Assembly (NCBI GenBank): GCA_964537055.1
Contig: CAZHYV010000004.1
Coordinates: 112,661 to 176,660 of the forward strand
DNA from: an uncultured Myxococcales bacterium
Lineage (GTDB): Bacteria > Myxococcota_A > Polyangia > Palsa-1104 > JAEUJZ01
Length of the DNA: 64,000 nt
Direction of reading: 5' to 3'
Shown: piece after piece, positions 20,225-43,721 of the stretch
Layout: the number at the start of each line of letters is the position of its first letter
Numbering within the stretch: the first letter of the stretch is position 1
The notes under the pieces: generated by a model
Database searches by the model: none
Told to the model about the DNA's origin: nothing
What the model saw: the letters and a program-made list of their open reading frames with translations, nothing else
Made by a program: the position numbers and the translations under genes

Positions 20225-22354
20225 ATGTCCACTTCATCCATCGCTGATATTGAACTAAAGTTTTACGAAACATTCTTCTTTTCTAAAGGTCTTGAGCCTT
20301 ATCGTGTGCAAGAGCAGGCCTTCTCACATATTTTTGCGGGAGAAAGCCTGCTTGTCACCGTCCCAACGGGAACAGGGAAGACGATGATGGCCAAGGCGGG
20401 TATCTTTAAGGCCCTCTCTTTAGGTCAAACGGCAGTTTATACTACGCCTCTGCGAGCATTGACCGAAGAAAAATTTCGTGAACTCTGCGCAGATTTTGGC
20501 GAGGACAAAGTAGGCTTTGCGACAGGTGATTATAAGGTCAACCCCTTAGCTCCAATCCAAGTGGTCGTCGCCGAAATCCTATGGAACCAGATTTTTTCTG
20601 ACCGCGTGTCTCGACCTGCAGATTTGGTCATCATGGACGAAGGACATTATTTCAATTCGTTTGACCGAGGGTATGTCTGGGAGCAGTCGATCATTGGTCT
20701 TGATCCAAGGACACAGCTCGTCATCTTATCTGCAACGGTAGGACATCCTGAGAAGTTTTGTGATTGGGTTCACAAGACCAGACAAGTCCCTATGGCTTTG
20801 GTACAGTCGTACGAAAGAAAAGTACCTCTGTACCATGAGTACCGAGAAAATTATCTGCTTGAAGTGGTGAAGGACCTTGCTTATCACGGAGAAACTCCAG
20901 CAATTCTCTTTGTCTTTGGCCGGGAGCTTTGCTTTGAAACAGCGCGGCTTTTGAAAAGCTGCCGACGCTTCACCACCGACGAAGAGCAAGCCAAGATGAT
21001 TCCCTTGATCGAGAAGGCACTTCTTCCACGAGGAGCTTCACAAGAGCTCCGGCCTCTTCTGCTCCACGGGATCGGCATCCATCATGCAGGTATCCTACCT
21101 CGATACAAACGCTTGGTCGAAGAGCTTGCCCTCGAGCGTTTGATCAAATTTGTGGTGAGCACTGAGACCATCGCAGCAGGAATTAATCTACCTGCCAAGC
21201 GTGTCGTATTTCCTTCGTTGAAGAAAGTAATTAAAGGCAAACCACGTCTGCTTCTCGCCGAAGAATACCACCAGATGGCAGGACGTGCAGGCAGACCTCA
21301 GTTTGACACCGAGGGAATTGCTATTACATTAGCGCCCGACGAAGTGGTTCAAGCGGTCCGCAAGGAGATTGCTGAATTACAAAAACGAAAACATAGTATC
21401 GACGAAGCAAGGATTCGCAAAGCCGTGTATGCACGTCTCCGTACTGAGGCAGCCAAAAGCGGCGACCCCCTTTGGGATGCAGACGCACATCAGAAACTGG
21501 TCCAAGGGCAACCCGCCCCGCTTCGAAGTCACACCCAAATTACGGCGGATCAAATCTTGGCGATCGGACTGCCTGATCTTACATCATCATCACAACTTGC
21601 AGAAGAGTCTACCCTCCCGCCTTCGATGAATCTAAACATCAAAACTGTGGTCGATCACTTATTGATTGATGAAAAGAGCAAGCTAACTGCCCGAAAGCAG
21701 CTTCAACACCTAACAGAAAATATGATGTCGCTGGGCATTCTGGATGAGCATGGACACCAGATCTCTGGAACGATGATAAACGACTTAAGAGGAATTGATG
21801 GGCCGTTTGTCTATTACTGCCTCAGGGCCCACGATCTCCCCTACGAGGATCTACGAACCTTGGTTGAGTTCTTGGTCGACCACGATGTGATTCACAAACG
21901 TTTACTCAGACAGGCGGACGAGAAAAAACGAGAGTGGATCAAAAATCATCTGCGGGAGTTGCGAAAGGACTTTCCCCAAGCGACTTGGGAAGACGCCGAA
22001 GAAGAGTACGAAAAGCGGTTTCCCCGGGATCTCTCCAGGATTGAGTGGATCCACCACGAGTTCCTGGGCAAAGTTCCCCATCCAGAATTGCATGGAGGGA
22101 AGGTTCAAAAGAACATCTGGTGTGTCATGGAAACCGAATCTCTTGGATTTATGGATTATGTAGAGCGATACAACCTTCAATTTGAAGAGGGAAACCTGTT
22201 TAGTTACCTTTCCCGTGTCATGAAAGTGGCAGAAACGTTACATGAAGCAACGTCTCTCGAAGAATTTTATCAAATCGAGCGTGGGGTTCGAACTGTCTTA
22301 GGAACCATTGATGAACGTGTTCTCGAGGAGAGTTATGCTTCTCCTACCCCATAA
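20225..22354 (+). CDS. DExH-box (superfamily 2) helicase
   Basis: Motif I PTGTGKT, motif II DEGH, motif III SAT and motif VI QMAGRAGR. 709 aa with a C-terminal extension. Confidence 0.8.
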   Translation: MSTSSIADIELKFYETFFFSKGLEPYRVQEQAFSHIFAGESLLVTVPTGTGKTMMAKAGIFKALSLGQTAVYTTPLRALTEEKFRELCADFGEDKVGFATGDYKVNPLAPIQVVVAEILWNQIFSDRVSRPADLVIMDEGHYFNSFDRGYVWEQSIIGLDPRTQLVILSATVGHPEKFCDWVHKTRQVPMALVQSYERKVPLYHEYRENYLLEVVKDLAYHGETPAILFVFGRELCFETARLLKSCRRFTTDEEQAKMIPLIEKALLPRGASQELRPLLLHGIGIHHAGILPRYKRLVEELALERLIKFVVSTETIAAGINLPAKRVVFPSLKKVIKGKPRLLLAEEYHQMAGRAGRPQFDTEGIAITLAPDEVVQAVRKEIAELQKRKHSIDEARIRKAVYARLRTEAAKSGDPLWDADAHQKLVQGQPAPLRSHTQITADQILAIGLPDLTSSSQLAEESTLPPSMNLNIKTVVDHLLIDEKSKLTARKQLQHLTENMMSLGILDEHGHQISGTMINDLRGIDGPFVYYCLRAHDLPYEDLRTLVEFLVDHDVIHKRLLRQADEKKREWIKNHLRELRKDFPQATWEDAEEEYEKRFPRDLSRIEWIHHEFLGKVPHPELHGGKVQKNIWCVMETESLGFMDYVERYNLQFEEGNLFSYLSRVMKVAETLHEATSLEEFYQIERGVRTVLGTIDERVLEESYASPTP

Positions 22355-22627
22355 CCCCTTTGGCCTTTGCATATAAGAACTTATTCCTTACCCATCGGCC
22401 ATGCTTCCCCAACCGTTCAATCACAACGAAGCCTAAACTTGTTACGAGGCCGACCTGAGTTTGTGTTACTACTACAGCCAAAACCTATACACAAATTAAA
22501 GGTTTCTTGAACCGCAGGTCCTCCTTCTTGGATTAAATTTTTTTGTCAATTCTTTAGAAATCTTGCTATTTTTTCCCTACATATCCACCCAACGTGCACA
22601 CATCTTACATCATGCTACAATGATGAC

Positions 22628-24247
22628 ATGGTGCGACGAAGTATGGTAACATTAGGATTTTTGCTCTTTTGTTTCTTCTCATGCAAAGCTCCACCCTCTT
22701 TTTTAGAAAAAGACTACTTTGCCCTCCTTGAAAGGGAATGTTCTCTCCTCCCCAAGCAAGGGTCTTTCTATCTCGATCCTCCTCCGTCGTGCCAAGAAGC
22801 GTTTGATTGGGTGCTCCCTCTTGAAGCCAAGTATCATCAAGCTGAGTACGCAGAAGAAAAAGCTCGTCTCTATCGGGCCTTTTACTTTCTCCTTACTCGT
22901 CCTTTAGCACTACCTATGGAGAAAAATATCTACGGGATGGTGCCTGCAGGCGATTTGGTTGCTCCTTCGGTTCTCCAGATGAGGAAAGAGCATCCAGAAA
23001 TGAAGCTCAATCAAATCTTTTTTAACTACGTCTTAAACGCCACCAATGAGATCAAGATAAAAACCGATTATCCTAGCAGAAGCGGATATTTCAATCCAAT
23101 GACACAAAGCATTCATATAGCCCCTTTATCAGAACCCAATTCCACCATCGAGCAGGTTCTAGTTGATGCGTCCACATTAATCCACGAGGCTCGGCACTCG
23201 GAGACAGGGCCTCATGATACCTTTTGCAAAGGAGACACCCTGATCCCTGAGTGCGACAAAGGAACCGATCAACCCCATGGATTTCAGCTCACCTATCTAT
23301 GGAGTCTCCTTCAGGGCAATGAACTCCGTCCGCATCTTTCGATGACCGAAATGATTTATGTGGAAACTCAAATCTTCGAGGAGACCACTTCATTAACAAC
23401 CCTTCCCGGAGAAGTGCTCCTTTTTCGAGACATGGCTTGCGACCTCGAAGAAGCCTATAAGCCAGAAGGAGGGTTACGGAACTATTTCTCGTTCCGAGCA
23501 ATTTCTCAAGCAGAACAGCTTAGTACCTATGAACGGCAGTCCTTTTTTGTAGAGAGTGATGTCTACAAACAAGCCATGTCCGCTTGCAAAGGAACGCCTC
23601 AATCTTTCCAATGTGAGAAGATGATGGACCGCCTCATGGCCTCCTCCTTAGAATCAAGTGCTGAAGGCCTAAGAAGTTGCTCGACCTCAGGAGATATCGT
23701 AGAGAACTGCCAATCCAGGATCCGGAAAGGTTTTCTTTCCCTGCTATTAAATCCGCTTATTCTCCCTTTGGAAAAGTCGGTGCTTGGCCTAGGGCAAGCA
23801 CAAGATTTACTAGACCCTGATTTTCTGTCTTTGTTCCAGCATAATTCCTCGATGAATCCAAATCAGGTTTTATTCAATTATTTGCTTAAGGTACTTCCTA
23901 CTGTTCCGGATTGGTCTTTGGCTTATCCTTATTTTTCCGAACCTCTTGGGGAAGGTCCTTCACTGTATCTTCATGAAATCTCATCTTTCTTTGCCCGACT
24001 ACCCAGCATGTCTACCGTTTCTACCCTCTCAGTCCGCGAACTTCCTCGGTGGTACGGAAGCCTGCTCTGGGTTTTTCTGAAAAGTAATAGTGCCGCAACC
24101 AAACCCTTTTTAAAGCCTCAAGAAGTTTCTGGGCTTACCGAAGTGATGTGTGAGGCCTTTAGGCAATCTTCCCTCCCCATTCAGTTCTCAACATTAAAAC
24201 AGATGTCTTGCCAGGATTCTAAAATTCTGAAAAAATGGATGTCGTGA
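22628..24247 (+). CDS. hypothetical Cys-rich secreted protein or lipoprotein with an internal repeat
   Basis: Signal-peptide-like N-terminus (LLFCFFSC). Two related roughly 70-aa segments share L..PL.LP.EK...G...A.DL..P..L........NQ..FNY.L. Confidence 0.45.
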   Translation: MVRRSMVTLGFLLFCFFSCKAPPSFLEKDYFALLERECSLLPKQGSFYLDPPPSCQEAFDWVLPLEAKYHQAEYAEEKARLYRAFYFLLTRPLALPMEKNIYGMVPAGDLVAPSVLQMRKEHPEMKLNQIFFNYVLNATNEIKIKTDYPSRSGYFNPMTQSIHIAPLSEPNSTIEQVLVDASTLIHEARHSETGPHDTFCKGDTLIPECDKGTDQPHGFQLTYLWSLLQGNELRPHLSMTEMIYVETQIFEETTSLTTLPGEVLLFRDMACDLEEAYKPEGGLRNYFSFRAISQAEQLSTYERQSFFVESDVYKQAMSACKGTPQSFQCEKMMDRLMASSLESSAEGLRSCSTSGDIVENCQSRIRKGFLSLLLNPLILPLEKSVLGLGQAQDLLDPDFLSLFQHNSSMNPNQVLFNYLLKVLPTVPDWSLAYPYFSEPLGEGPSLYLHEISSFFARLPSMSTVSTLSVRELPRWYGSLLWVFLKSNSAATKPFLKPQEVSGLTEVMCEAFRQSSLPIQFSTLKQMSCQDSKILKKWMS

Positions 24248-25326
24248 GGCGTCTATTTCAAAAGATTCTTTCCATCGCCTATGCTGTCCCCATAGCAAAC
24301 ATGGGGCTCATTCTTTGCGTGTTAACGCCTTTTCAGGCAAGTGCAGCTTCTGATCCAACTCTGCGTACTGCTTCGCCTCCACAAGCTGCAAAAGACCCAC
24401 AGCTCCAACTGCTTGGCTCGACGGGCATTGGCACTTACAACATTGTCATCCCTAAGACAGAGACTTGGTATGCGCCTCTCCGTCTTGATCTTTTGCCACA
24501 ATGTCATCAGCCCGGCTTTTGTCAAAAGTATAAGCTTCGCTTCGCCATCACTCATCTAGATTTCTCGTTTGCGCAAGCGCCTCGGGTTCTGTCTCCCGGG
24601 AAAGCTGCCGAGAACGGACTTCCCTCTTTGTACGTAAATGTTGAAGCGTTTCAGATGCAGTTTACAAAAAGGATTTGGGTAAGCTTTGGTCAAATGCAGC
24701 TCTTCCGAGCCTTACGGCAACTAGATGAGGTAATGAATACCCAACTCACCGTTGCCAAACTGTCTGTACCCTTTGGAAGACTTGATAAATCTTGGGCGCA
24801 GGGAGGATGCTTTTTTGACATGAAGGGCCCGGGCTTCAAACAGGTGGCATACGGGTATCCAAACGAGGTTCCCTTCACTGGCCTCTTTGTGCTGGGCATC
24901 CAAACCAGCTGCCAAGTTGCCCTAGGTAGCCGAACTACCTCTGCGACCTTAGGCTATGCGTTTCGTAATGAAATCTCCGTGGGCAAAAGCGGAAACGGCA
25001 CGGCCGATAAGCCAGGACCCTTTGGCGCCCTTCTTACAGAGCACCGCTTTCAGATAAACGCCGGCGTGAAGCTTCGGCTGCCCGAAAAAGCACAAGCACT
25101 CGGGTTTCATCAGGTACGGCTCGAAGGAGTGCTTACACTCTTTTATCATATGAACCATGGCTGCCTTATCAGCCCCAGTCTCTCAAATCCACTGTGCAGC
25201 AACCAGGCTGATCAGTTCGAGCCTCGAGCCGGGATCCAACTCAGTCTAGATTTTGGTACACCAAAAACCCAATCTCAAAGCCACCCGATGGATCTACCCT
25301 ACACCTTCCCAAACTTTGGGTTATAG
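24235..25326 (+). CDS. hypothetical secreted protein
   Basis: 363 aa with a cleavable-signal-like N-terminus (IANMGLILCVLTPFQASAAS). Its last 16 codons plus stop are duplicated 2.5 kb downstream. Confidence 0.45.
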   Translation: MDVVRRLFQKILSIAYAVPIANMGLILCVLTPFQASAASDPTLRTASPPQAAKDPQLQLLGSTGIGTYNIVIPKTETWYAPLRLDLLPQCHQPGFCQKYKLRFAITHLDFSFAQAPRVLSPGKAAENGLPSLYVNVEAFQMQFTKRIWVSFGQMQLFRALRQLDEVMNTQLTVAKLSVPFGRLDKSWAQGGCFFDMKGPGFKQVAYGYPNEVPFTGLFVLGIQTSCQVALGSRTTSATLGYAFRNEISVGKSGNGTADKPGPFGALLTEHRFQINAGVKLRLPEKAQALGFHQVRLEGVLTLFYHMNHGCLISPSLSNPLCSNQADQFEPRAGIQLSLDFGTPKTQSQSHPMDLPYTFPNFGL

Positions 25327-25330
25327 CGGA
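25275..25330. repeat. direct repeat copy 1 (3' end of the upstream gene)
   Basis: Hand alignment gives 47/56 identity with 27795..27850. Both copies keep the frame QSHPMDLP(Y/H)(T/I)FP(N/S)FG(L/P) followed by a stop. Confidence 0.7.
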
Positions 25331-25502
25331 ACAGGGAGGCTACGTCTTCTCCGGTAGCCCATTCCTTTTTGCAACCATATCCTTACAAAGGTACCCTCCT
25401 CAAATGGAAGACTTTTATAAAACCGCTTGTGCTGCTCCTTTCTTGCTGATATGACCTAAAAAATTGAATTTCCTCAACAAACTGTAAAAGAGGAGGAGCA
25501 TC

Positions 25503-26585
25503 ATGAAATCAAAAGCACTACTTGTAGGGTTGTATGGCCTGATAAGTTTTTCTTGTGGACCTCTAGAAGAGCAAACCACAGAACCTTCCGAAGAAAGAGA
25601 GCGTCGCACAAATTCCTTGGCACAGGCGGACGATCCGAATGCAGAGTGCCAAGGGTCTTCCGGGGAAAACCCAATGCCAGATGGTCCCTGTATCGAAGCG
25701 GCCGATCATGAAAAAGACGAGATTTTGTCCGAACGAAAATTCCGAGAACTGCGCGAGGTAGCTCGCATAGCCTTCGGAAACTTCCCACGGCGAGATTCAG
25801 CTGGCTTTGTACACTTTGTCTCAGCAACCTCGGAAAATGATGAAATCATTGATGTTCGGCTTACCACCCCTTTTCCAATCATAAAACAAAAATGCTGGAA
25901 TTGGTGCGGCCCTGCAGCAACCCAAATGGTGCTCCATTATTTTCGGCGGCATGCTTCCCAAGATGACATCAAGGAAGCTGAAAGAGCCGGAGAATGTGAT
26001 GTGAAAGACTCAGGAGGCACTGCCATTGAGCCTATCTTAAAATACCTGAACGCACACATTGCTGAGATGGAGGATACCATCATCGATCCCATGAGTTGGA
26101 ATGACCCTTCCGGTCAATTCACTTATACTCTAGCATCTTCACATCCAGTGACGATTCTCCCCAAAACCGTCGTTCCCTACTCAGGCCATCATATAGGGCC
26201 TGATCCGGAGGACGAGAAAAATAATGCAAAAACGCTCATTACCATGGTCATTACTGATGTTGTGAAGCACAACCAGCCGGTGATTGTTTTGATCAATGAA
26301 ACTCCTCCCCAAAAGGAATATATATTTCCTGGCTTCTTTTATAAAACAAAGAATCTAAAAAAAGAGGCAAGGCGTGCTCATTATGTCCTTTTGATTGGAT
26401 ATAAAGGAAACTACGACGGGAGTGATGATTCTGCTCAATTTATCTTCCGTGAAAGCAGCACGCGGAATGGCATTGGAGATCGAATCATTCGGGAAGAAGT
26501 CAGTGTCAATGCCATCATCGCTGAGTTAGAATCCAATAATGGACATGGGGGCATGTCAAAGGAGAACTGGAATGTCCTTTATTAA
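25503..26585 (+). CDS. secreted C39-like papain-fold cysteine peptidase (Peptidase_C39_2-like)
   Basis: Signal or lipoprotein-like N-terminus (LISFSCG). Catalytic-Cys motif KCWNWCGPAATQMVL, later NQPVIVLIN, and a His motif AHYVLLIGYKGNYDGSDD, matching the C39-like family architecture as recalled. Confidence 0.6.
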   Translation: MKSKALLVGLYGLISFSCGPLEEQTTEPSEERERRTNSLAQADDPNAECQGSSGENPMPDGPCIEAADHEKDEILSERKFRELREVARIAFGNFPRRDSAGFVHFVSATSENDEIIDVRLTTPFPIIKQKCWNWCGPAATQMVLHYFRRHASQDDIKEAERAGECDVKDSGGTAIEPILKYLNAHIAEMEDTIIDPMSWNDPSGQFTYTLASSHPVTILPKTVVPYSGHHIGPDPEDEKNNAKTLITMVITDVVKHNQPVIVLINETPPQKEYIFPGFFYKTKNLKKEARRAHYVLLIGYKGNYDGSDDSAQFIFRESSTRNGIGDRIIREEVSVNAIIAELESNNGHGGMSKENWNVLY

Positions 26586-27789
26586 AAAAGAATCTTACAA
26601 GATGAGGGCTTTAGACTCTCATATGATCCAATGCCTAAGCATTGGATTCTTCCTTCTTCTTTCTACAAATGCATCTCCTACCAGTACCCCAAGCGACCCC
26701 TACTTTCGGGGTTTTGTCAAAACTCCTGTAGTGGCCACTGAGCTTACCGATCGGCCTTATCGAACCTGGATGATCCCTTCGCTTCCTCATCCTGATAGAC
26801 TTACCTATGCCTCAAACCACGGGCTACTGGTCTATCAATGTCAAAGTAATCCAACTGATGAAGAAAGCGATCTCACCTTTTGCTTTATAGATTTTAGAGA
26901 ACCTGTTCTGACCGAGCGCATGCTACCCCTTCCAAAACAAAAGACCACGCGTCTTTTTTTGGGCGGTCCACGGGCGGTCAGCGGGGATTGGGTGCTCGGG
27001 ATTTCTGGATGGAAGAGCGATACATATCGGGCCTTCCACCTTAAAACCGGGAAGCAGCTCATTGTGGGCAAAATCAGAAAGACGCCGGTGGATCATCCCG
27101 TAGGGCCGTTTGCGACCATTGCCGATCATCGGGTCGTTTGGGTCGATGAGTATAGAGACAAGACCGGCCGTAGAAATGCCATTAAGCTATTTGATCTGAA
27201 CACACACAGAGCGAAAACCCTATTTGAAGTACCTCCCGTTCACGAGGTAGATCAGGTAGCTTTAGAGAAAAATTTATTAGTGTATAGCTTGGTCGATTTG
27301 AAAGACCAAGAGAGTAAAGGCGAAGTTGCGAGTGATATTTACTTATATAACCTGACTACAAAAACCCATACTCGTTTGAGTCAAACGAAGCATGCCTCAC
27401 AGCCTGACATTGCCTGGCCATACGTAGTGTGGAAAACAGGGGTCTTTTTTGGAGTAAGTGGAATTTACCTTTACAATGGAGAAACAAAAACAGGGACCGA
27501 GCTCATCCAGGCAACCCGCGGAACCTCTCCTATTCGCAGTTATGAATTCCCGTTTATTTCTAAGGAGGGCGTGGCATGGCATGGTCTAGATTCTGATCGT
27601 AGAGTCGTTTTGTACCATCCTAAGACAAAAACGGAAGAGGTCCTGGCCAAAGCAGGATGGACCGTCTCGTTAGCGGGGCATTATCTTACCTGGGAAAGTG
27701 ACAACGAAAAAGATCCCAGCTGTACGGCCCCGAAGAAAAAGGACTGTTTGTACTTTACAGACCTTTCCGTACCTAATCGAAAACAATAA
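26572..27789 (+). CDS. secreted beta-propeller-like repeat protein
   Basis: RBS aaggag 12 nt upstream of the ATG, with a 14-nt overlap with the preceding gene. Signal peptide, then recurring blade-like segments (VVWVDEY, LLVYSLVD, YVVWKTG, GVAWHGLD, HYLTWESD). Confidence 0.5.
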   Translation: MSFIKKESYKMRALDSHMIQCLSIGFFLLLSTNASPTSTPSDPYFRGFVKTPVVATELTDRPYRTWMIPSLPHPDRLTYASNHGLLVYQCQSNPTDEESDLTFCFIDFREPVLTERMLPLPKQKTTRLFLGGPRAVSGDWVLGISGWKSDTYRAFHLKTGKQLIVGKIRKTPVDHPVGPFATIADHRVVWVDEYRDKTGRRNAIKLFDLNTHRAKTLFEVPPVHEVDQVALEKNLLVYSLVDLKDQESKGEVASDIYLYNLTTKTHTRLSQTKHASQPDIAWPYVVWKTGVFFGVSGIYLYNGETKTGTELIQATRGTSPIRSYEFPFISKEGVAWHGLDSDRRVVLYHPKTKTEEVLAKAGWTVSLAGHYLTWESDNEKDPSCTAPKKKDCLYFTDLSVPNRKQ

Positions 27790-27794
27790 GAGTT

Positions 27795-27850
27795 CCAAAG
27801 CCACCCCATGGATCTGCCCCACATCTTCCCAAGTTTTGGGCCGTAGCGGA
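27795..27850. repeat. direct repeat copy 2 (a displaced copy of the 3' end of gene 24235..25326)
   Basis: See copy 1. It lies immediately after the stop of the beta-propeller gene and ahead of rpmH. Confidence 0.7.
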
Positions 27851-27922
27851 CTCATGAGAAGAAGAGATCTTGACAACCGTCTAAAGATCCTGGTAGAACT
27901 GCTTCTTCAAAAGGAGTAGCCT

Positions 27923-28072
27923 GTGAAACGTACGTACCAACCTAGCAACCAACGTCGAAAACGAACCCATGGATTCCGAGTACGGATGAAAACCCGGGGT
28001 GGCAGACTGACCCTTTCCCGTCGTCGCCGTAAAGGTCGTGCTCGAATTGCAGTTACCATTGCAACCAAGTAA
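27923..28072 (+). CDS. rpmH: 50S ribosomal protein L34
   Basis: GTG start with RBS aaggag at 27911-27916. [45 protein letters not shown] is the canonical L34. It falls below the ORF-track size cutoff. Confidence 0.9.
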
Positions 28073-28127
28073 TGAGCTTTCTTTTTACGTAGGTTTTCCC
28101 CAATTATCAGGGTTATCCCTTCCTCCT

Positions 28128-28505
28128 GTGACCACTTTTTTTTCTTTTTCGTCTCAAGAGAGAATCCGAAAACGTTCGGACTTTCTACGAATGTTAAAAA
28201 CAGGAGTACGATGTCCTTCGCCTCATTTTATCTTTCTCTTAAAAGCATCTGAGCTTCCTTATCCACGGCTTGGTCTAATCGTATCAAAAAAAGTGGGCCC
28301 GGCTGTGGTAAGAAACCGGGTCAAGCGGTGCCTCCGAGAAATCTTCCGTCATCATAAACAGGCAGTGGGCGAATATCGAGACGTTGTTGTGATTGCAAAA
28401 CCATCCGCCGCTTTGCTAACGTTTCAGGAAATCGCAGCCCAGGTGAGAAGGTTTCTTTCTTCCCCTGCAGCAAAGGCCCTGCTTCCAAGAAAGGAGTTGG
28501 CATGA
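28128..28505 (+). CDS. rnpA: ribonuclease P protein component
   Basis: [51 protein letters not shown]. The start is taken at an in-frame GTG after the rpmH stop; the ORF track start at 28038 overlaps rpmH. Confidence 0.8.
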
Positions 28506-37856: not shown

Positions 37857-38924
37857 CTATGCTTCTGACGCTAGCATCTGTAAGAACCAATCTTCATCGC
37901 TAATATTTTCAACGTCGACAAATTTTTTTGCAAGACTCTTCTGAATCTGCTCTATCGCAGAAACGAACGTTTTTTCCATGTAGTGTTTTTCGAGCAGAGG
38001 ATGGATGTAATATCTCCGACAGACGCTTGGCGTATTGCCAAGCTGTTTTGCGACTTGCTTCACAATCTCGCTATACCCTTTCTTTGAGGGGATTTTCCTG
38101 GAGGAAACCGCTGGCTCCTCACTCTGAAAACACGCTTTTAGCTTTTGAAAGGCGCATAAAGTTCCTGAAAAGGTACGAAAATCTTTTGCTGTAAACTCAT
38201 TGCCCGTGACTTCGTAAAGGTACTGGTTGACATCCGAGGAGCCAATGCTACAAAGCTCGTGGTTCTCATCCATGTATTGAAACAGGTCCTGCCCGGGCAG
38301 CTCTTGGCATTGCTTCACAATACGAGCAAGCTGTCTATCCGCAAGATCAATTTTGTGAAAGATGCCACTTTTCCCTCGAAAACGAAAGTGAATGGTGCTT
38401 TTGTCAATTTGGACATGATGGTTCTTGAGCGTAGTTAACCCAAAGGATCGGTTGGTTTTTGCATATGCTTCGTTCCCAATTCGAATTGATGTCGTCTCTA
38501 ATAGCCGAACCACCGTTGCAAGCACTTTTTCCTTCGGTAAACCTTTCAGTGTAAGGTGTTCCTCCACCTGCTTGCGTACTAAAGGTAAACTCTTTACGAA
38601 CATGAGCATTTTTTCGAATTTGGTTTCGTTCCTGATCGAAGAAAACGCTGGATGATAGAGATACTGTTTCCGATCTCTTGCATCGCGTCCCGTTGCCTGT
38701 AAATGTCCCTTTGGGTGAGGGCTAATCCACACCTTCGTCCATGCAGGAGGAATGCGCAATGCCTTGATCCGAAGAAGATGCTCCTTATCAATTAGAGCTT
38801 GGCCCTGTTGATCAAAATAACGGAACCCTCGTCCATACCGCCTTCGAGTAAACCCCGTGCTTTGATCAGAAACATATCGAAGCCCTGCTTCTTTTGCACT
38901 TTGCTTGGGTGCTGGCGCATTCAT
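37857..38924 (-). CDS. type IB DNA topoisomerase (poxvirus/bacterial TopIB family)
   Basis: N-terminus GFTRRRYGRGFRYFDQQGQ, core TSIRIGNEAYAK...GLTTLK, and a C-terminal catalytic-Tyr region NTPSVCRRYYIHP; 355 aa. Confidence 0.8.
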   Translation of the reverse strand: MNAPAPKQSAKEAGLRYVSDQSTGFTRRRYGRGFRYFDQQGQALIDKEHLLRIKALRIPPAWTKVWISPHPKGHLQATGRDARDRKQYLYHPAFSSIRNETKFEKMLMFVKSLPLVRKQVEEHLTLKGLPKEKVLATVVRLLETTSIRIGNEAYAKTNRSFGLTTLKNHHVQIDKSTIHFRFRGKSGIFHKIDLADRQLARIVKQCQELPGQDLFQYMDENHELCSIGSSDVNQYLYEVTGNEFTAKDFRTFSGTLCAFQKLKACFQSEEPAVSSRKIPSKKGYSEIVKQVAKQLGNTPSVCRRYYIHPLLEKHYMEKTFVSAIEQIQKSLAKKFVDVENISDEDWFLQMLASEA

Positions 38925-40814: not shown

Positions 40815-40831
40815 TGGTCTCTCTAAAATTT

Positions 40832-40904
<73 letters not shown>

Positions 40905-40926
40905 TAGAAGATGTGGGAAATCAATG

Positions 40927-42220
40927 TCATTTCTCCTGCGTCTCAAAAAAATTACAAATCAGTTCTGTTTGCGTATTTTCGTATAAAAACCCATTGAAAA
41001 AGGCCCGATAATACTCGTTTTGGTATTTTGCCCTTTCGAGTGGATCTTTTCCTATAAGTTTCCAATCTCTGGAAAAAAGCCGAATAAAATCCTGTCCTGT
41101 TTGCGCGTTGATTCCATCAAAGATAGTTTTCTTTCCATCTTTGATCTTATCCACAAGAACGACTCGCTGATGAGTATGGTTAGCATCAATATAAGAAGAG
41201 AGTATCGCTTGGTTGATATAAGTATCAGCAAACCCGTACCCAATGATGAGCAGCCTACTGTTGTTACGCAAACATCTTCTGAAATATTCGTAATATGTGG
41301 CGAACGGTTCCTGTGCAATTACTCGATTCGATTTCTCTAACCCTGTAATTATTGGAAAATTATATTCGGATCTTCCTGCTTGGGATTGTTGTGCATATCG
41401 AGGAAATCTAAGATCCTTTTGGGAAAAAACTGCGATTTTCATTGAATGGCCAAATGTTTATACTACCATGCAAATGTGCAAGCCTTGGTCTTTCATCTGC
41501 TTCCATAAATAATGAAGGACTAAATATAAACCTATCTTCTATAGGGCGAAAACCACAGTCAATGTAGGATATTACTTCCTCGATACAGGGGTCATAATTT
41601 AATGTGACTATATTAAGTTGAAACTTCGATGCGAGTGTCTCCAGGAACGAACGATATCGAGAGTGTGCTTGAGAAATGTCTATGGGTAATTGCTGGACAC
41701 TATTAAGGACTTTCCTAGAATTTTGATAAATAGAATCTAAAACTTGATGAATGATTTTTGAAATAAGTCTACGAATAAACCATTCTATGTTTTGGGACGG
41801 CGATTCAGGCTCTCCGGAGGATAATTCACTCAAGAAGTCCGCTATTTCCTTATGAAATTCTTTTGTCAAAAAGCCTTCTACAGCGACTATGCCATGATAA
41901 CGAAGTCCGCTGTTTTTAGAGGGATAACTTCTATGGAGTGTTGAAAGAGTTTCTAGAGTATGGATCAGATGTTCAAAATTGATGAGTTCAACTTGCTTAT
42001 TTTTTTCACCAGGAGTAACTTTATATTCATTAGGGAAATCGTCTCGATAGCAGTTCGTCGTAAGCTGTTTAAGTATTTCTAAGAACTCTAGCTCCCGACT
42101 ATCAAACAATTTGTAACTATTACAAAAGATTTCCTTGGTTATGGCAACAGTACCAGGGATTTTCAACAATGTAGAGGCGCCAGCTCCAACAAGGATAGTA
42201 AGTCGTTCTTTTTTACTCAT
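40927..42220 (-). pseudogene. SIR2-like (SIR2_2 family) protein split by a frameshift in an A6 run (plus-strand 41424..41429)
   Basis: The N-terminal ORF (41408..42220) has LTILVGAGAS and a catalytic-His motif HLHGS. The C-terminal ORF (40927..41442) has LLIIGYGFAD. Deleting one T from the minus-strand T6 run joins the two frames directly (..NENRSFSQKDLRFPRYAQQ..), giving a roughly 425-aa protein. Confidence 0.6.
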
Positions 42221-43386
42221 TTGCTTAAATAAACTCTTTCTTCTAATCTATTCCGAGTGCGGTTAAGCTCTTCGACGAGTAACTTTTCGTCTGGAAGTTT
42301 TGTTTTGTATTCACTCGCCAGGACTTTGTTAGTAATCCCTTCTAATGCATAATGAACCACGGCATCTTCTTTCTGGGAACACAGAATTAATCCCACAGGT
42401 GGATTTTCTCCTTCTAGCCTCCAGTGCTCTCGTGCATAGTTTACATAAAGATGCATTTGACCCACGTCTGCATGGGTGAGACGTCCAATTTTCAAATCAA
42501 TGATGACCAGGCAGCGTAATCGTCGGTGAAAGAAGAGCAGATCGATTCGATACCATTCTGACCCTACGCGTAATCGTCTTTGGCGGCCAACAAAGGTAAA
42601 ATCGTTTCCCAGTTCAAGCAAAAAAGCTTCCAAATTTGCAATCAATGCTTCTTCTAACTTGCTCTCTGAATACTCGTCTTTTAGACCTAAAAATTCTAGG
42701 ACAAATGGGTTCTTAATCTCTTCTTCCGGGGTCAAAGCATATTCGGGTTTTGCTGGTGTTTCCTTCTTGAGAAGATTTGCTTTATTCTTAGACAGAAGGG
42801 CCCGCTCATAAAATTGACTATCGATTTGACGCTCTAACTGTCTTACGCTCCACCCACCTCGAAGGGCTTCTGCTTCATAGAAAGCACGGGCTTCTTCTGA
42901 GCGTGTCCGACGAATCAATAAAACGTAATGCGACCACGATAAAGGAAATGGGACCTTCCTATTTTTTCCTTCGACCTTTAATTCCCCAGACACTGTCTGG
43001 GGAATTTGTCGTTGTGCATAAATCGAATAGAATCGTCGAGCGTCTTCCAATCGAGTAATCGAAAACCCTCGACCAAATCTTTCAGTGAGATGATGAGAAA
43101 GATAATGCAGTAATTCCTGACCATACTGCGCCCGTTCTTTTCCCTGTTGTTCTTGCTCGATGATCCGTTTTCCTAAAGACCAATACATCGTTGTCATAAT
43201 GAGATTGACTGAGCGCACAGCGTTCCTTTTCGCTTGCTCGATAAGCCCTACTAAGTCATCTAACATCGTCTTGTAGTCGGATTGCGATACAAGTTTTGCC
43301 TTTGGTAAGAGATTGTCTCTATTCGATCGCTTTTTGTTCTTTGGTAGTGGCATCTTAGACAGGTACAGTAGCGTTTTTTCATCCAA
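42217..43386 (-). CDS. YhcG/DUF1016-family PD-(D/E)XK nuclease
   Basis: 389 aa with PLSWSHYVLLI in the N-domain and a C-terminal PD-(D/E)XK core (RIDLLFFH...VIIDLK...GQMHLYVNY). Its stop overlaps the SIR2-like start (ATGA). Confidence 0.7.
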   Translation of the reverse strand: MDEKTLLYLSKMPLPKNKKRSNRDNLLPKAKLVSQSDYKTMLDDLVGLIEQAKRNAVRSVNLIMTTMYWSLGKRIIEQEQQGKERAQYGQELLHYLSHHLTERFGRGFSITRLEDARRFYSIYAQRQIPQTVSGELKVEGKNRKVPFPLSWSHYVLLIRRTRSEEARAFYEAEALRGGWSVRQLERQIDSQFYERALLSKNKANLLKKETPAKPEYALTPEEEIKNPFVLEFLGLKDEYSESKLEEALIANLEAFLLELGNDFTFVGRQRRLRVGSEWYRIDLLFFHRRLRCLVIIDLKIGRLTHADVGQMHLYVNYAREHWRLEGENPPVGLILCSQKEDAVVHYALEGITNKVLASEYKTKLPDEKLLVEELNRTRNRLEERVYLSK

Positions 43387-43555
43387 GAGGAAAGTGCCGA
43401 GACAAGAATTTATTCAAACAAATGTAGGAGAATGCCAAACCTTACTGCTCCATTTTAACATCAAAGGAGCCAAAAATAGTTTCTTTATTCACGTAAGTAG
43501 TTAAAAGTGCAGAACTTTGTGGAACTGGACAACGATACCATAAAGCTTCTCATCA

Positions 43556-43610
43556 GTAGAGTGTCTGAATGGCATTCAGACGGTCAGGGGTTCGATTCCC
43601 CTCAGCTCCA
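43556..43610 (+). repeat. direct repeat of the 3' 55 nt of tRNA-Ala (att-like islet boundary)
   Basis: gtagagtgtctgaatggcattcagaCggtcaggggttcgattcccctcaGctcca differs from tRNA positions 19-73 at two positions. Confidence 0.8.
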
Positions 43611-43721
43611 TCATTTTGTCTTACCTGTGATAGTTTATACGGTTGCGTTTTTTCTTATGGTACGAATTTCATCTAGCCGTGCATAGTACTCTGCCTGGTA
43701 CTTGCGAAAAGCGTACGACGG

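Follow-up and report, generated by a model that had tools for sequence, protein, structure and literature searches.

A predicted exported cysteine peptidase of the C39_2 family and its conserved beta-propeller partner in an uncultured Myxococcales bacterium

The gene pair

We analysed a 64,000-nucleotide (nt) stretch of DNA from an uncultured Myxococcales bacterium (contig CAZHYV010000004.1, positions 112,661 to 176,660; hereafter the window) and describe a unit of two genes on its plus strand, in which a gene for a predicted exported papain-type cysteine peptidase lies directly upstream of a gene for a predicted secreted beta-propeller protein. The conservation of this pairing in other genomes is the main addition to the original prediction, which was made from the sequence alone.

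The peptidase gene (25503-26585, +; 360 amino acids (aa)) was recognised by its open reading frame (ORF) and a match to Peptidase_C39_2 (PF13529). Its strong ribosome-binding site (RBS), GAGGAGGAG at 25490-25498 (+), was read from the sequence and is spaced 4 nt from the ATG. The propeller gene (26572-27789, +; 405 aa) was recognised by its ORF, the public start, an AlphaFold2 (AF2) model with seven blades, and Foldseek matches. Its RBS, AGGAG at 26560-26564 (+), is inside the end of the peptidase gene, 7 nt 5' of the ATG at 26572. The longest ORF of the propeller gene begins at 26539. The ATG at 26572, with its upstream AGGAG, is preferred as the start codon, and translation from it gives the 405-aa product of the public gene call P0003 (100% identity over 100% of the query). 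Since the peptidase gene stops with TAA at 26583-26585, the two genes overlap by exactly 14 nt. Both are real genes and not chance ORFs, each having homologues at E values of 1e-60 to 1e-158.

Five terminator-like matches were found in 22300-28200, none of them at the junction of the two genes, and such matches were not commoner than in shuffled sequence. A stem-loop at 26625-26648 (+) falls within the signal-peptide codons of the propeller gene, and its T tail is weak. The promoter scan gave 13 promoter-like matches where 6.2 were expected and was taken as uninformative. As the junction has no terminator-like site, co-transcription and translational coupling are reasonable to infer, and the peptidase and propeller genes can reasonably be taken as one translationally coupled, co-transcribed unit. 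The original prediction had placed both genes at the coordinates given here, with a 14-nt overlap and an RBS for the second gene. The sequence bears this out, and the overlap and the internal RBS agree with the close coupling that it had proposed.

The peptidase

The window peptidase matched PF13529 with an E value of 8.8e-11 and 43 bits, above the Pfam gathering cut-off of 24 bits. The predicted domain covers residues 124-304 (25872-26414, +) in two stretches, residues 124-191 corresponding to profile positions 3-83 and residues 249-304 to positions 91-134. A word-indexed search of 5.8 billion clustered proteins gave only two relatives, P0002 (37% identity) and P0007 (34%). They also score above the cut-off (45.8 and 32.3 bits), each in one stretch over profile positions 2-134 or 3-134 of 143. 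Three further peptidases, 23-29% identical, were reached through their propeller neighbours (L021:3887-4726, L025:665-1555, and L028:1693-2592; L001-L028 are the related loci compared with the window, and P numbers denote protein homologues). In precomputed annotation the L025 peptidase matches PF13529 and the L021 peptidase matches it faintly. We refer to the window, P0002 (L001), P0007 (L007), and P0004 (L008) as the close group, and to L021, L025-27, and L028 as the distant group.

Weaker matches of the window peptidase were to PF03412 and PF09778, both papain-type families that are treated as relatives of C39_2 in a 2023 classification (PMC10318531). For PF03412 (cut-off 22 bits) the full protein reached 16.9 bits, which is below the cut-off, and an 85-aa fragment was borderline at 22.0 bits. 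By these profile scores the window peptidase is a member of PF13529 and not a canonical C39 domain of PF03412 linked to an ATP-binding cassette (ABC) transporter.

The predicted active site consists of two segments, both placed by alignment. Q129-K-C131-W-N-W-C135 (25887-25907, +), which is also covered by the PF03412 match (positions 2-38), would supply the oxyanion-hole Gln and the nucleophile Cys, and H293-YVLLIGY...FIFR-E317-SS (26379-26453, +) would supply the catalytic His and the third, acidic residue. Gln129, Cys131, Cys135, Cys165, His293, Tyr294, Arg316, and Ser318 are invariant across the peptidase alignment, and Q129, C135, and H293 are unchanged in five aligned sequences with identity down to 26%. 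Position 317 is acidic in all six peptidases (Glu in the close and Asp in the distant group), while Asp308 is an alternative candidate for the third catalytic residue.

The Q-x5-C-G spacing of the window peptidase is that of the C39 protease LahT150 (6mpz), whose Gln and Cys in this motif we take to be its catalytic residues. When a profile of five sequences was compared with the PDB, the Gln and Cys and, separately, His293 aligned to LahT150 (weak, E 0.05), and H293...R-E317-S-S aligned to the segment DHAVVLIGY...LLRNSWG of ficin (4yyq; weak, E 1.2), the His/Asn motif of the papain family. PDB sequence searches with the single peptidase and with the three-sequence and five-sequence profiles gave nothing significant (best E 0.05), and the matches were used for register. 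They are too weak to establish homology by themselves, and their register agrees with the PF13529 assignment. An AF2 model made with a three-sequence alignment had a predicted local distance difference test score (pLDDT) of 33.5 and a predicted template modelling score (pTM) of 0.25. Its helix at 137-146, just after Cys135, and its strands at 295-301 and 310-317 would be compatible with a papain-like fold in which a Cys at the start of a helix faces a His on a strand, but the model is too low in confidence for them to be given weight. We therefore describe the first protein, by profile and alignment, as a predicted papain-fold cysteine hydrolase of the C39_2 family with Gln129, Cys135, His293, and Glu317 as candidate catalytic residues. 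The original prediction had called a C39-like papain-type core and had picked this Cys and His; the PF13529 score and the invariance of both residues in the relatives speak for that call.

Export signals were called with a pattern of the PROSITE PS51257 type and by reading the N-termini. The pattern asks for [LVI..][ASTVI..][GAS]-Cys, with the Cys at 15-35, preceded by a basic n-region and an h-region without charges. The peptidase begins with MKSKALLVGLYGLISFSC18GP and matches the pattern at Cys18, giving a predicted lipoprotein-type signal peptide at 25503-25556 (+) with the lipobox I-S-F-S-C18 followed by Gly-Pro. Cys18-Gly-Pro is unchanged in three close homologues, and the N-terminus aligns to the lipoprotein signal of the solute-binding protein 5xs8. 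The window peptidase is a probable lipoprotein, lipid-anchored at Cys18. A charged linker of about 100 residues separates Cys18 from the C39_2 domain.

The propeller

The propeller protein has a predicted signal peptide of the signal peptidase I (SPase I) type at aa 1-34 (26572-26673, +), recognised by its N-terminal features: a basic n-region, a 12-residue hydrophobic core (I19-L30), and predicted cleavage after T-N-A34, before Ser, with no lipobox. Ala34 is invariant in four close propeller homologues, and the model has a pLDDT below 50 for residues 1-41. The proposal that both proteins carry export signals thus finds agreement in the lipobox pattern of the peptidase and the SPase-I-type N-terminus of the propeller.

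The propeller domain, read from the strands of the model, covers aa ~45-401 (26704-27774, +) with blade strands of the V-x-W / V-V-W-x-D-E type. The AF2 model, made with four sequences (pLDDT 77.4, pTM 0.79), is all-beta with 30 strands, which can be read as seven four-stranded sheets plus N-terminal strands. A Foldseek search of the PDB gave 753 chains at E<=0.001, and the best 50 listed were all propellers. The top matches, with template modelling (TM) scores of about 0.4-0.57, included the seven-bladed oligogalacturonate lyase 3pe7/3c5m, Kelch domains, S9 carboxypeptidase propellers, and YncE. This is a generic propeller match that points to no specific family. The earlier call of a beta-propeller is thus supported by the seven blades of the model and by its structural neighbours.

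In sequence, the window propeller had no Pfam repeat match, PD40, Kelch, and DUF5050 included, and it reached 13.2 bits against TIGR04275, far from the curated cut-off of 85 bits. Its profile matched polyubiquitin alone among PDB sequences, by chance, and the genome-contig scan with the propeller alignment gave no relative. The profile was also searched exhaustively against 1.84 billion representatives. This gave 630 proteins at E<=0.001 and 11 at E<=1e-30, and about a dozen proteins matched near full length in a single stretch. The many weaker matches come from surface proteins built of multiple repeats, whose blade motif is GNRIVWxDxRNGNxDIYxYDL. Among 65 distant matches that were scanned, PKD was found in 18, Kelch in 13, PD40 in 9, DUF5050 in 9, DPPIV_N in 6, and subtilase in 3. 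The blades of the window propeller are strongly diverged from each other. In the family alignment of 13 sequences Cys90 is invariant and Cys104 nearly so, and Cys384/Cys392 are invariant in the close group. The residues that are invariant family-wide are largely structural (Gly, Trp, and Asp of the blade motif, and Cys90). No catalytic or metal site is evident, which fits a binding module.

Conservation of the pair

Nine loci, the window included, were informative for pairing; one further locus was left out. In seven of the nine, a C39_2-type gene lies directly upstream of a propeller gene on the same strand, with a spacing of -14 to +90 nt where both gene ends could be read. Within the close group, L007 has P0007, 14 nt, and then the propeller gene (46% identity), while L008 has the last 43 codons of a peptidase gene, ending in ...LESNDGKGGLSKEHWNVLY, followed by the gene for the propeller P0004 (60%). 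L001 has P0002, 14 nt, a propeller (43%), a 72-aa ORF, and a second propeller (43%). The 72-aa ORF (L001 6925-7182) is what remains of the C-terminal part of a second C39_2 gene, matching window residues 272-360 at 40% identity (tblastn E 7e-14) and indicating that the whole pair was duplicated in tandem. In the distant group, L021, L025-27, and L028 each have the C39_2-type gene directly 5' of the propeller gene on the same strand. The other two informative loci, L022 and L023/24, are without a peptidase gene in the ~2 kb upstream that could be read.

The flanking genes differ at every locus where they could be read: rpmH in the window, Sel1/GGDEF/MetRS in L001, and an AAA ATPase and GuaA in L007. 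In L008 the flank was too short for a comparison of neighbours. The GC content of the loci runs from 0.46 to 0.52 in the close group and from 0.55 to 0.63 among the distant ones, and the adjacency is retained at 23-31% protein identity and over a GC range of 0.46-0.62. Clearly, the two genes move or are retained together.

The anchoring of the two proteins also follows a pattern. In the window and in L025 the lipobox is on the peptidase and there is none on the propeller. L021 and L028 show the reverse: their propellers have a lipobox at Cys20 or Cys22, and their peptidases begin with an ordinary signal peptide whose last residue is Ala. Each of the four pairs whose signals could be called clearly has a single canonical lipobox, on the peptidase in two of them and on the propeller in the other two. 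The anchoring of the L001 and L007 peptidases is ambiguous because of a Cys at position -1. If one partner held the other in a stable two-subunit complex, each pair would need a single lipid anchor, which could sit on either subunit. This complementary anchoring, as read from the signals of four clear cases, is the best available indirect sign that the two proteins associate physically. Cys pairs are conserved in both proteins and were counted toward an extracytoplasmic life.

A further sequence was counted as support for a joint function of the pair: a 1263-aa metagenomic protein (L004 6084-9875) that appears to be a covalent fusion of a protease and a propeller. Its N-terminal part is subtilisin-like (S8-type) and is followed by a propeller of GNRVVWxDERNGNxDIYxYD repeats. 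The S8-type assignment was made by eye from the motifs D-T-G, H-G-T-H, and G-T-S-M-A-A-P-H, and Peptidase_S8 was confirmed by Pfam in 3 of the 65 other distant propeller matches.

Other features of the two proteins

In the linker before the peptidase domain, a loop of the form Cys49-x-GS-x-GEN-xx-PDG-x-Cys63 (25647-25691, +) is invariant in the window protein, P0002, and P0007, and is possibly a disulfide loop. It was not found in the aligned peptidases of the distant relatives L021, L025, and L028. At the other end of the protein is a conserved C-terminal tail with an aromatic end, AELESNNGHGGMSKENWNVLY (26509-26582, +), which is near-invariant in the window, P0002, P0007, and the L008 fragment. 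Its last 20 residues, LESNNGHGGMSKENWNVLY, are the best-conserved stretch of the close group, and the end N-[VLI]-[IL]-[WY] is retained in L021 and L028. Within the tail, residues 346-360 (26539-26582) of the close group have Gly-x-Gly-Gly followed by ten residues (GHGG, then MSKENWNVLY). This could be an autoprocessing site of the double-glycine type or a docking tail. The GG was not present in the peptidases of L021, L025, and L028.

In the high-GC relatives (L021 4807-6603, L023 2053-3759, and L028 2683-4425), the propeller protein has the N-terminus of a lipoprotein, and a linker rich in Pro, Thr, and Ala is followed by an additional C-terminal domain. The domain is conserved, has ~170 residues and two conserved Cys, had no Pfam match, and is not in the window protein.

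Neighbouring genes

Downstream of the pair are rpmH (27923-28072), rnpA, yidD, yidC, mnmE, and rsmG. A genome-contig scan with MnmE matched Firmicutes only, at 31-37%, and was uninformative about the host. Upstream are a DEAD-box helicase gene and genes for two exported proteins without an above-threshold Pfam assignment, and gyrB is at 751-2745. The surroundings of the pair in the window are an ordinary chromosomal context. The GC content of the two genes (0.456 and 0.463; the mean of the window genes is 0.468, with a standard deviation of 0.035), their GC content at third codon positions, and their codon usage are typical of the window, and no mobility gene adjoins them there. The suggestion that the pair was recently acquired as a cassette is therefore not supported. 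The only mobility-type gene beside any copy of the pair is that for a 392-aa serine recombinase (Resolvase + Recombinase), 250 nt downstream of it in L025 (2998-4176, -) and L026 (2218-3396, -).

The two exported proteins upstream (22628-25326) were considered as parts of the module and rejected; the conserved unit comprises the two genes only. The first (22628-24247, +; 539 aa) has a lipoprotein-like N-terminus (..FFSC19), the sequence HEARH (HExxH), and a weak match to the putative metallopeptidase family DUF6782. It also has an apparent internal repeat, at residues ~90-137 (LALPMEK...NQIFFNYVLN) and ~375-420 (LILPLEK...NQVLFNYLLK). A homologue in L007 with 25% identity and a retained HExxH lies 7.5 kb from the pair on the other strand. 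The second (24235-25326, +; 363 aa) has a signal-like N-terminus and its gene overlaps the preceding gene by 13 nt. It had no match in Pfam, NCBIfam, or PADLOC and no homologue in the related loci, and was found only in L003, a contig of the same genome. In L001, 4.3 kb of sequence 5' of the pair could be searched, and neither protein could be detected there.

Elsewhere in the window, a 56-nt direct repeat (40850-40905 and 43556-43611, 96% identical) corresponds to the 3' part of tRNA-Ala(ggc) (region 40831-43611). The repeats bracket a low-GC segment of 2.7 kb (gene GC 0.37-0.43, the window mean being 0.47) with three minus-strand ORFs, one of which encodes a YhcG/DUF1016 PDDEXK nuclease (42217-43386, -). 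From its sequence, the segment looks like a small integrated element, or the remnant of one, at a tRNA gene. The window also contains a gene for a bacterial type IB topoisomerase (Topoisom_I + Top1B_N_bact; 37857-38924, -), a gene that is uncommon in bacteria.

Function of the pair

Since the two genes are adjacent in several distantly related uncultured bacteria, their products most likely work together in the cell envelope. The original prediction had already proposed a functional pair, and this proposal now rests on the adjacency in seven of nine informative loci. The reading that we tentatively favour, with a chance somewhat short of even, is a membrane-tethered complex of peptidase and propeller in which the propeller recruits or gates the substrate. 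The peptidase would be tethered to the membrane through the lipid-modified Cys18 and the flexible linker of about 100 residues, and the propeller would be a soluble seven-bladed protein released by SPase I. Binding of the propeller to the peptidase would then give a membrane-tethered heterodimer, in which the propeller might serve as the substrate-recruiting or access-gating subunit, by analogy to a propeller of the S9/DPP-IV type. The complex would cleave a particular peptide or protein of the envelope or, should the lipoprotein be exposed on the surface, an extracellular one. The analysis shows the two genes, their export signals, the membership in C39_2, the propeller fold, and the conserved pairing; the physical complex, the catalytic competence, and the direction of regulation are what we infer in this model. 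A more far-reaching version, a split holoenzyme in which a papain-fold peptidase is gated by a separately encoded propeller, with the anchor on either subunit and conservation across distant lineages, is distinctly unlikely.

Several points weigh against the tethered complex. The fold of the peptidase and the geometry of Cys135 and His293 are read from sequence alone. P0002 and P0007 have a Cys at lipobox position -1 and are rejected by the strict pattern. No candidate substrate gene is linked to the pair, and the 13-sequence alignment has no polar cluster in the propeller that would suggest a defined binding or catalytic site. Moreover, the distant propellers of L022 and L023/24 have no peptidase gene in the ~2 kb upstream, and in L001 an intact propeller copy lies beside the decayed second peptidase copy. 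A cognate peptidase is therefore not a strict requirement for the propeller. These unpaired propellers and the decay in L001 would fit the role of an inhibitor or immunity protein equally.

This role defines the main rival, in which the propeller is a dedicated inhibitor or immunity protein that caps the exported peptidase in the envelope of the producer, and the peptidase is aimed outside or at competitors. The order of enzyme and then partner with tight coupling is typical of toxin-immunity pairs, and both the intact propeller of L001 beside a decayed peptidase and the stand-alone propellers of L022 and L023 resemble orphan immunity genes and agree slightly better with this reading. There is also a precedent in Tse1/Tsi1, a papain-like hydrolase and a periplasmic propeller-like immunity protein encoded as a bicistron (PMC3391265). 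However, a Sec/lipoprotein signal and a long tether on the window peptidase itself would keep it on the producer, unlike effectors of the type VI secretion system (T6SS) or of contact-dependent inhibition. A T6SS-type effector would have no Sec signal and would be delivered by a secretion apparatus encoded in the genome, whereas the window peptidase has such a signal, and no secretion-system genes were found among the ORFs examined near the pair, which cover part of the window. PADLOC gave no match, its library covering anti-phage defence and not effector-immunity pairs. Furthermore, a full seven-bladed propeller of ~360 residues is large for an inhibitor, and the complementary lipid anchoring fits a stable holoenzyme at least equally. 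We consider an inhibitor unlikely, although it survives better than the readings that follow.

The peptidase might instead be a cell-wall hydrolase that acts on stem peptides or cross-links of peptidoglycan, with the propeller as its envelope regulator, comparable to regulated lipoprotein endopeptidases. A lipid anchor in the envelope would suit wall remodelling. C39_2 is listed among the catalytic domains of phage endolysins in the portion of the literature covered, and the window peptidase had weak matches to three PHROG endolysin families (E 7e-4 to 8e-3), which makes peptidoglycan a possible target. These matches are limited to the region of the Cys motif, and tblastn with the peptidase domain gave no match in 50,697 phage and 72,556 plasmid records. 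Moreover, the Pfam scan found no wall-binding domain (LysM, SPOR, or PG_binding), and none of the neighbouring genes is connected with cell division or with synthesis of the wall. We regard a wall hydrolase as rather unlikely.

The alignment of Q-x5-C-G and the His to the double-glycine protease LahT150 and the G-x-G-G in the C-terminal tail of the close group would be consistent with a module for the maturation of leader peptides or effectors, a free-standing equivalent of C39 or FapD that cleaves double-glycine-type leaders of a secreted peptide, toxin, or fibre. FapD is a periplasmic stand-alone C39 protease that serves a secretion pathway (PMC5557850). We consider this very unlikely, since PF03412 is below its cut-off on the full protein, the GG of the tail is missing in the distant relatives, and the ORFs and Pfam-annotated genes beside the pair include, at every locus, neither an ABC exporter nor a gene of bacteriocin-like or fap type. 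The toxin- or effector-processing module of the original prediction falls on the same ground, as neither an ABC exporter, nor a double-glycine peptide, nor a secretion-system gene was found beside the pair, in the window or in the relatives, among ORFs of at least 60 aa and Pfam-annotated genes, a set that does not extend to small leader ORFs. Finally, we disfavour as highly improbable that the proteins are functionally unrelated neighbours whose adjacency reflects a shared ancestry of the loci; the loci are only a handful and the close group is perhaps from related organisms in the same samples, but the adjacency holds at low identity over a wide range of GC content without common flanks where these are readable, the anchoring is complementary, and the pair was duplicated as a unit.

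Few members of the large C39_2 family, which comprises exported papain-type enzymes, have been studied, and a study from 2026 described a C39-like protein with glycosidase and not peptidase activity (PMC13642728). With a conserved, dedicated partner, one C39_2 subfamily gains a concrete point of entry, and the pairing predicts an envelope enzyme of two subunits. If the propeller gates the peptidase or recruits its substrate, the pair would be a convergent protease-plus-propeller architecture made from separate genes. If it inhibits the peptidase, a full propeller would be added to the known kinds of protease immunity proteins. Since the evidence comes from genomes alone, the immediate value is modest.

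Comparison with known systems

Within a known family, the window peptidase falls in a very small and uncharacterised subfamily that is accompanied by a conserved propeller. In the 2023 classification, PF13529 proteins are single-domain peptidases with extra structural decorations (PMC10318531). Like them, the window peptidase is single-domain and exported, scores above the family cut-off, and has the Q-x5-C-G and His-aromatic motifs. It differs in belonging to so small and isolated a subfamily, in its long N-terminal tether with a Cys-bounded loop, in a long hairpin between His293 and the acidic residue, in its aromatic tail, and in its propeller partner. The passage on C39_2 gene neighbourhoods in that classification names transporters and a few other genes and no beta-propeller partner (PMC10318531), and the literature covered, which is partial, gave no description of a C39_2-propeller pair, an absence of evidence only.

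A stand-alone exported C39 protein had been called unusual. This does not hold, given that PF13529 consists of single-domain peptidases according to the same classification (PMC10318531) and that FapD is a precedent (PMC5557850). FapD of the Pseudomonas Fap amyloid system is likewise an exported, free-standing C39 cysteine protease of the envelope, and its active-site Cys is required (PMC5557850). It is encoded in the fapA-F operon and serves amyloid secretion, whereas there are no fap genes in the window neighbourhood and the window peptidase is putatively lipid-anchored and paired with a propeller. The C39 domains of PF03412 in bacteriocin or AMS ABC exporters, represented by LahT150, share the motif spacing and the local sequence at the Gln, Cys, and His. 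However, those domains are cytoplasmic and fused to the transporter, while the window peptidase has a Sec signal and no exporter beside it. No exporter was found beside the pair in L001, L007, L021, or L025 either.

Tse1/Tsi1 resembles the pair as a bicistron for a cysteine hydrolase of the papain superfamily and an exported, propeller-like, disulfide-containing partner, and Tsi1, a periplasmic partial propeller, inhibits the papain-like amidase Tse1 (PMC3391265). Tse1 is a T6SS effector of a different family, NlpC/P60, and is without a signal peptide, whereas the window peptidase has its own signal. Tsi1 is a three-sheet fragment and not a closed seven-bladed propeller, and no homology was detected.

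For the propeller itself, the closest likeness in sequence is to TIGR04275 (beta_prop_Msarc), PD40, and DUF5050, found in archaeal and bacterial surface proteins. The V-V-W-x-D-E...(I/L)-x-L-(F/Y)-D-L of the window propeller resembles their G-N-R-I-V-W-x-D-x-R-N-G-N-x-D-I-Y-x-Y-D-L, but the window propeller is far below the curated cut-offs and only its distant relatives carry these domains.

In S9/DPP-IV-type peptidases, a seven- or eight-bladed propeller restricts access to the catalytic domain. The prolyl-oligopeptidase/DPP-IV enzymes thus also combine a hydrolase with a propeller. The best TM score of the window propeller model was to the propeller of an S9 carboxypeptidase (8wt1_H, TM score by query (TMq) 0.57; also 7ep9_A), and distant sequence relatives of the window propeller match DPPIV_N and PD40. 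The likeness is one of analogy, as the window pair would combine a cysteine peptidase of papain fold with a propeller on separate polypeptides, in contrast to the serine alpha/beta hydrolases of S9. If the split holoenzyme were true, it would match the prolyl-oligopeptidase/DPP-IV design with a cysteine protease and a non-covalent link between the two parts.

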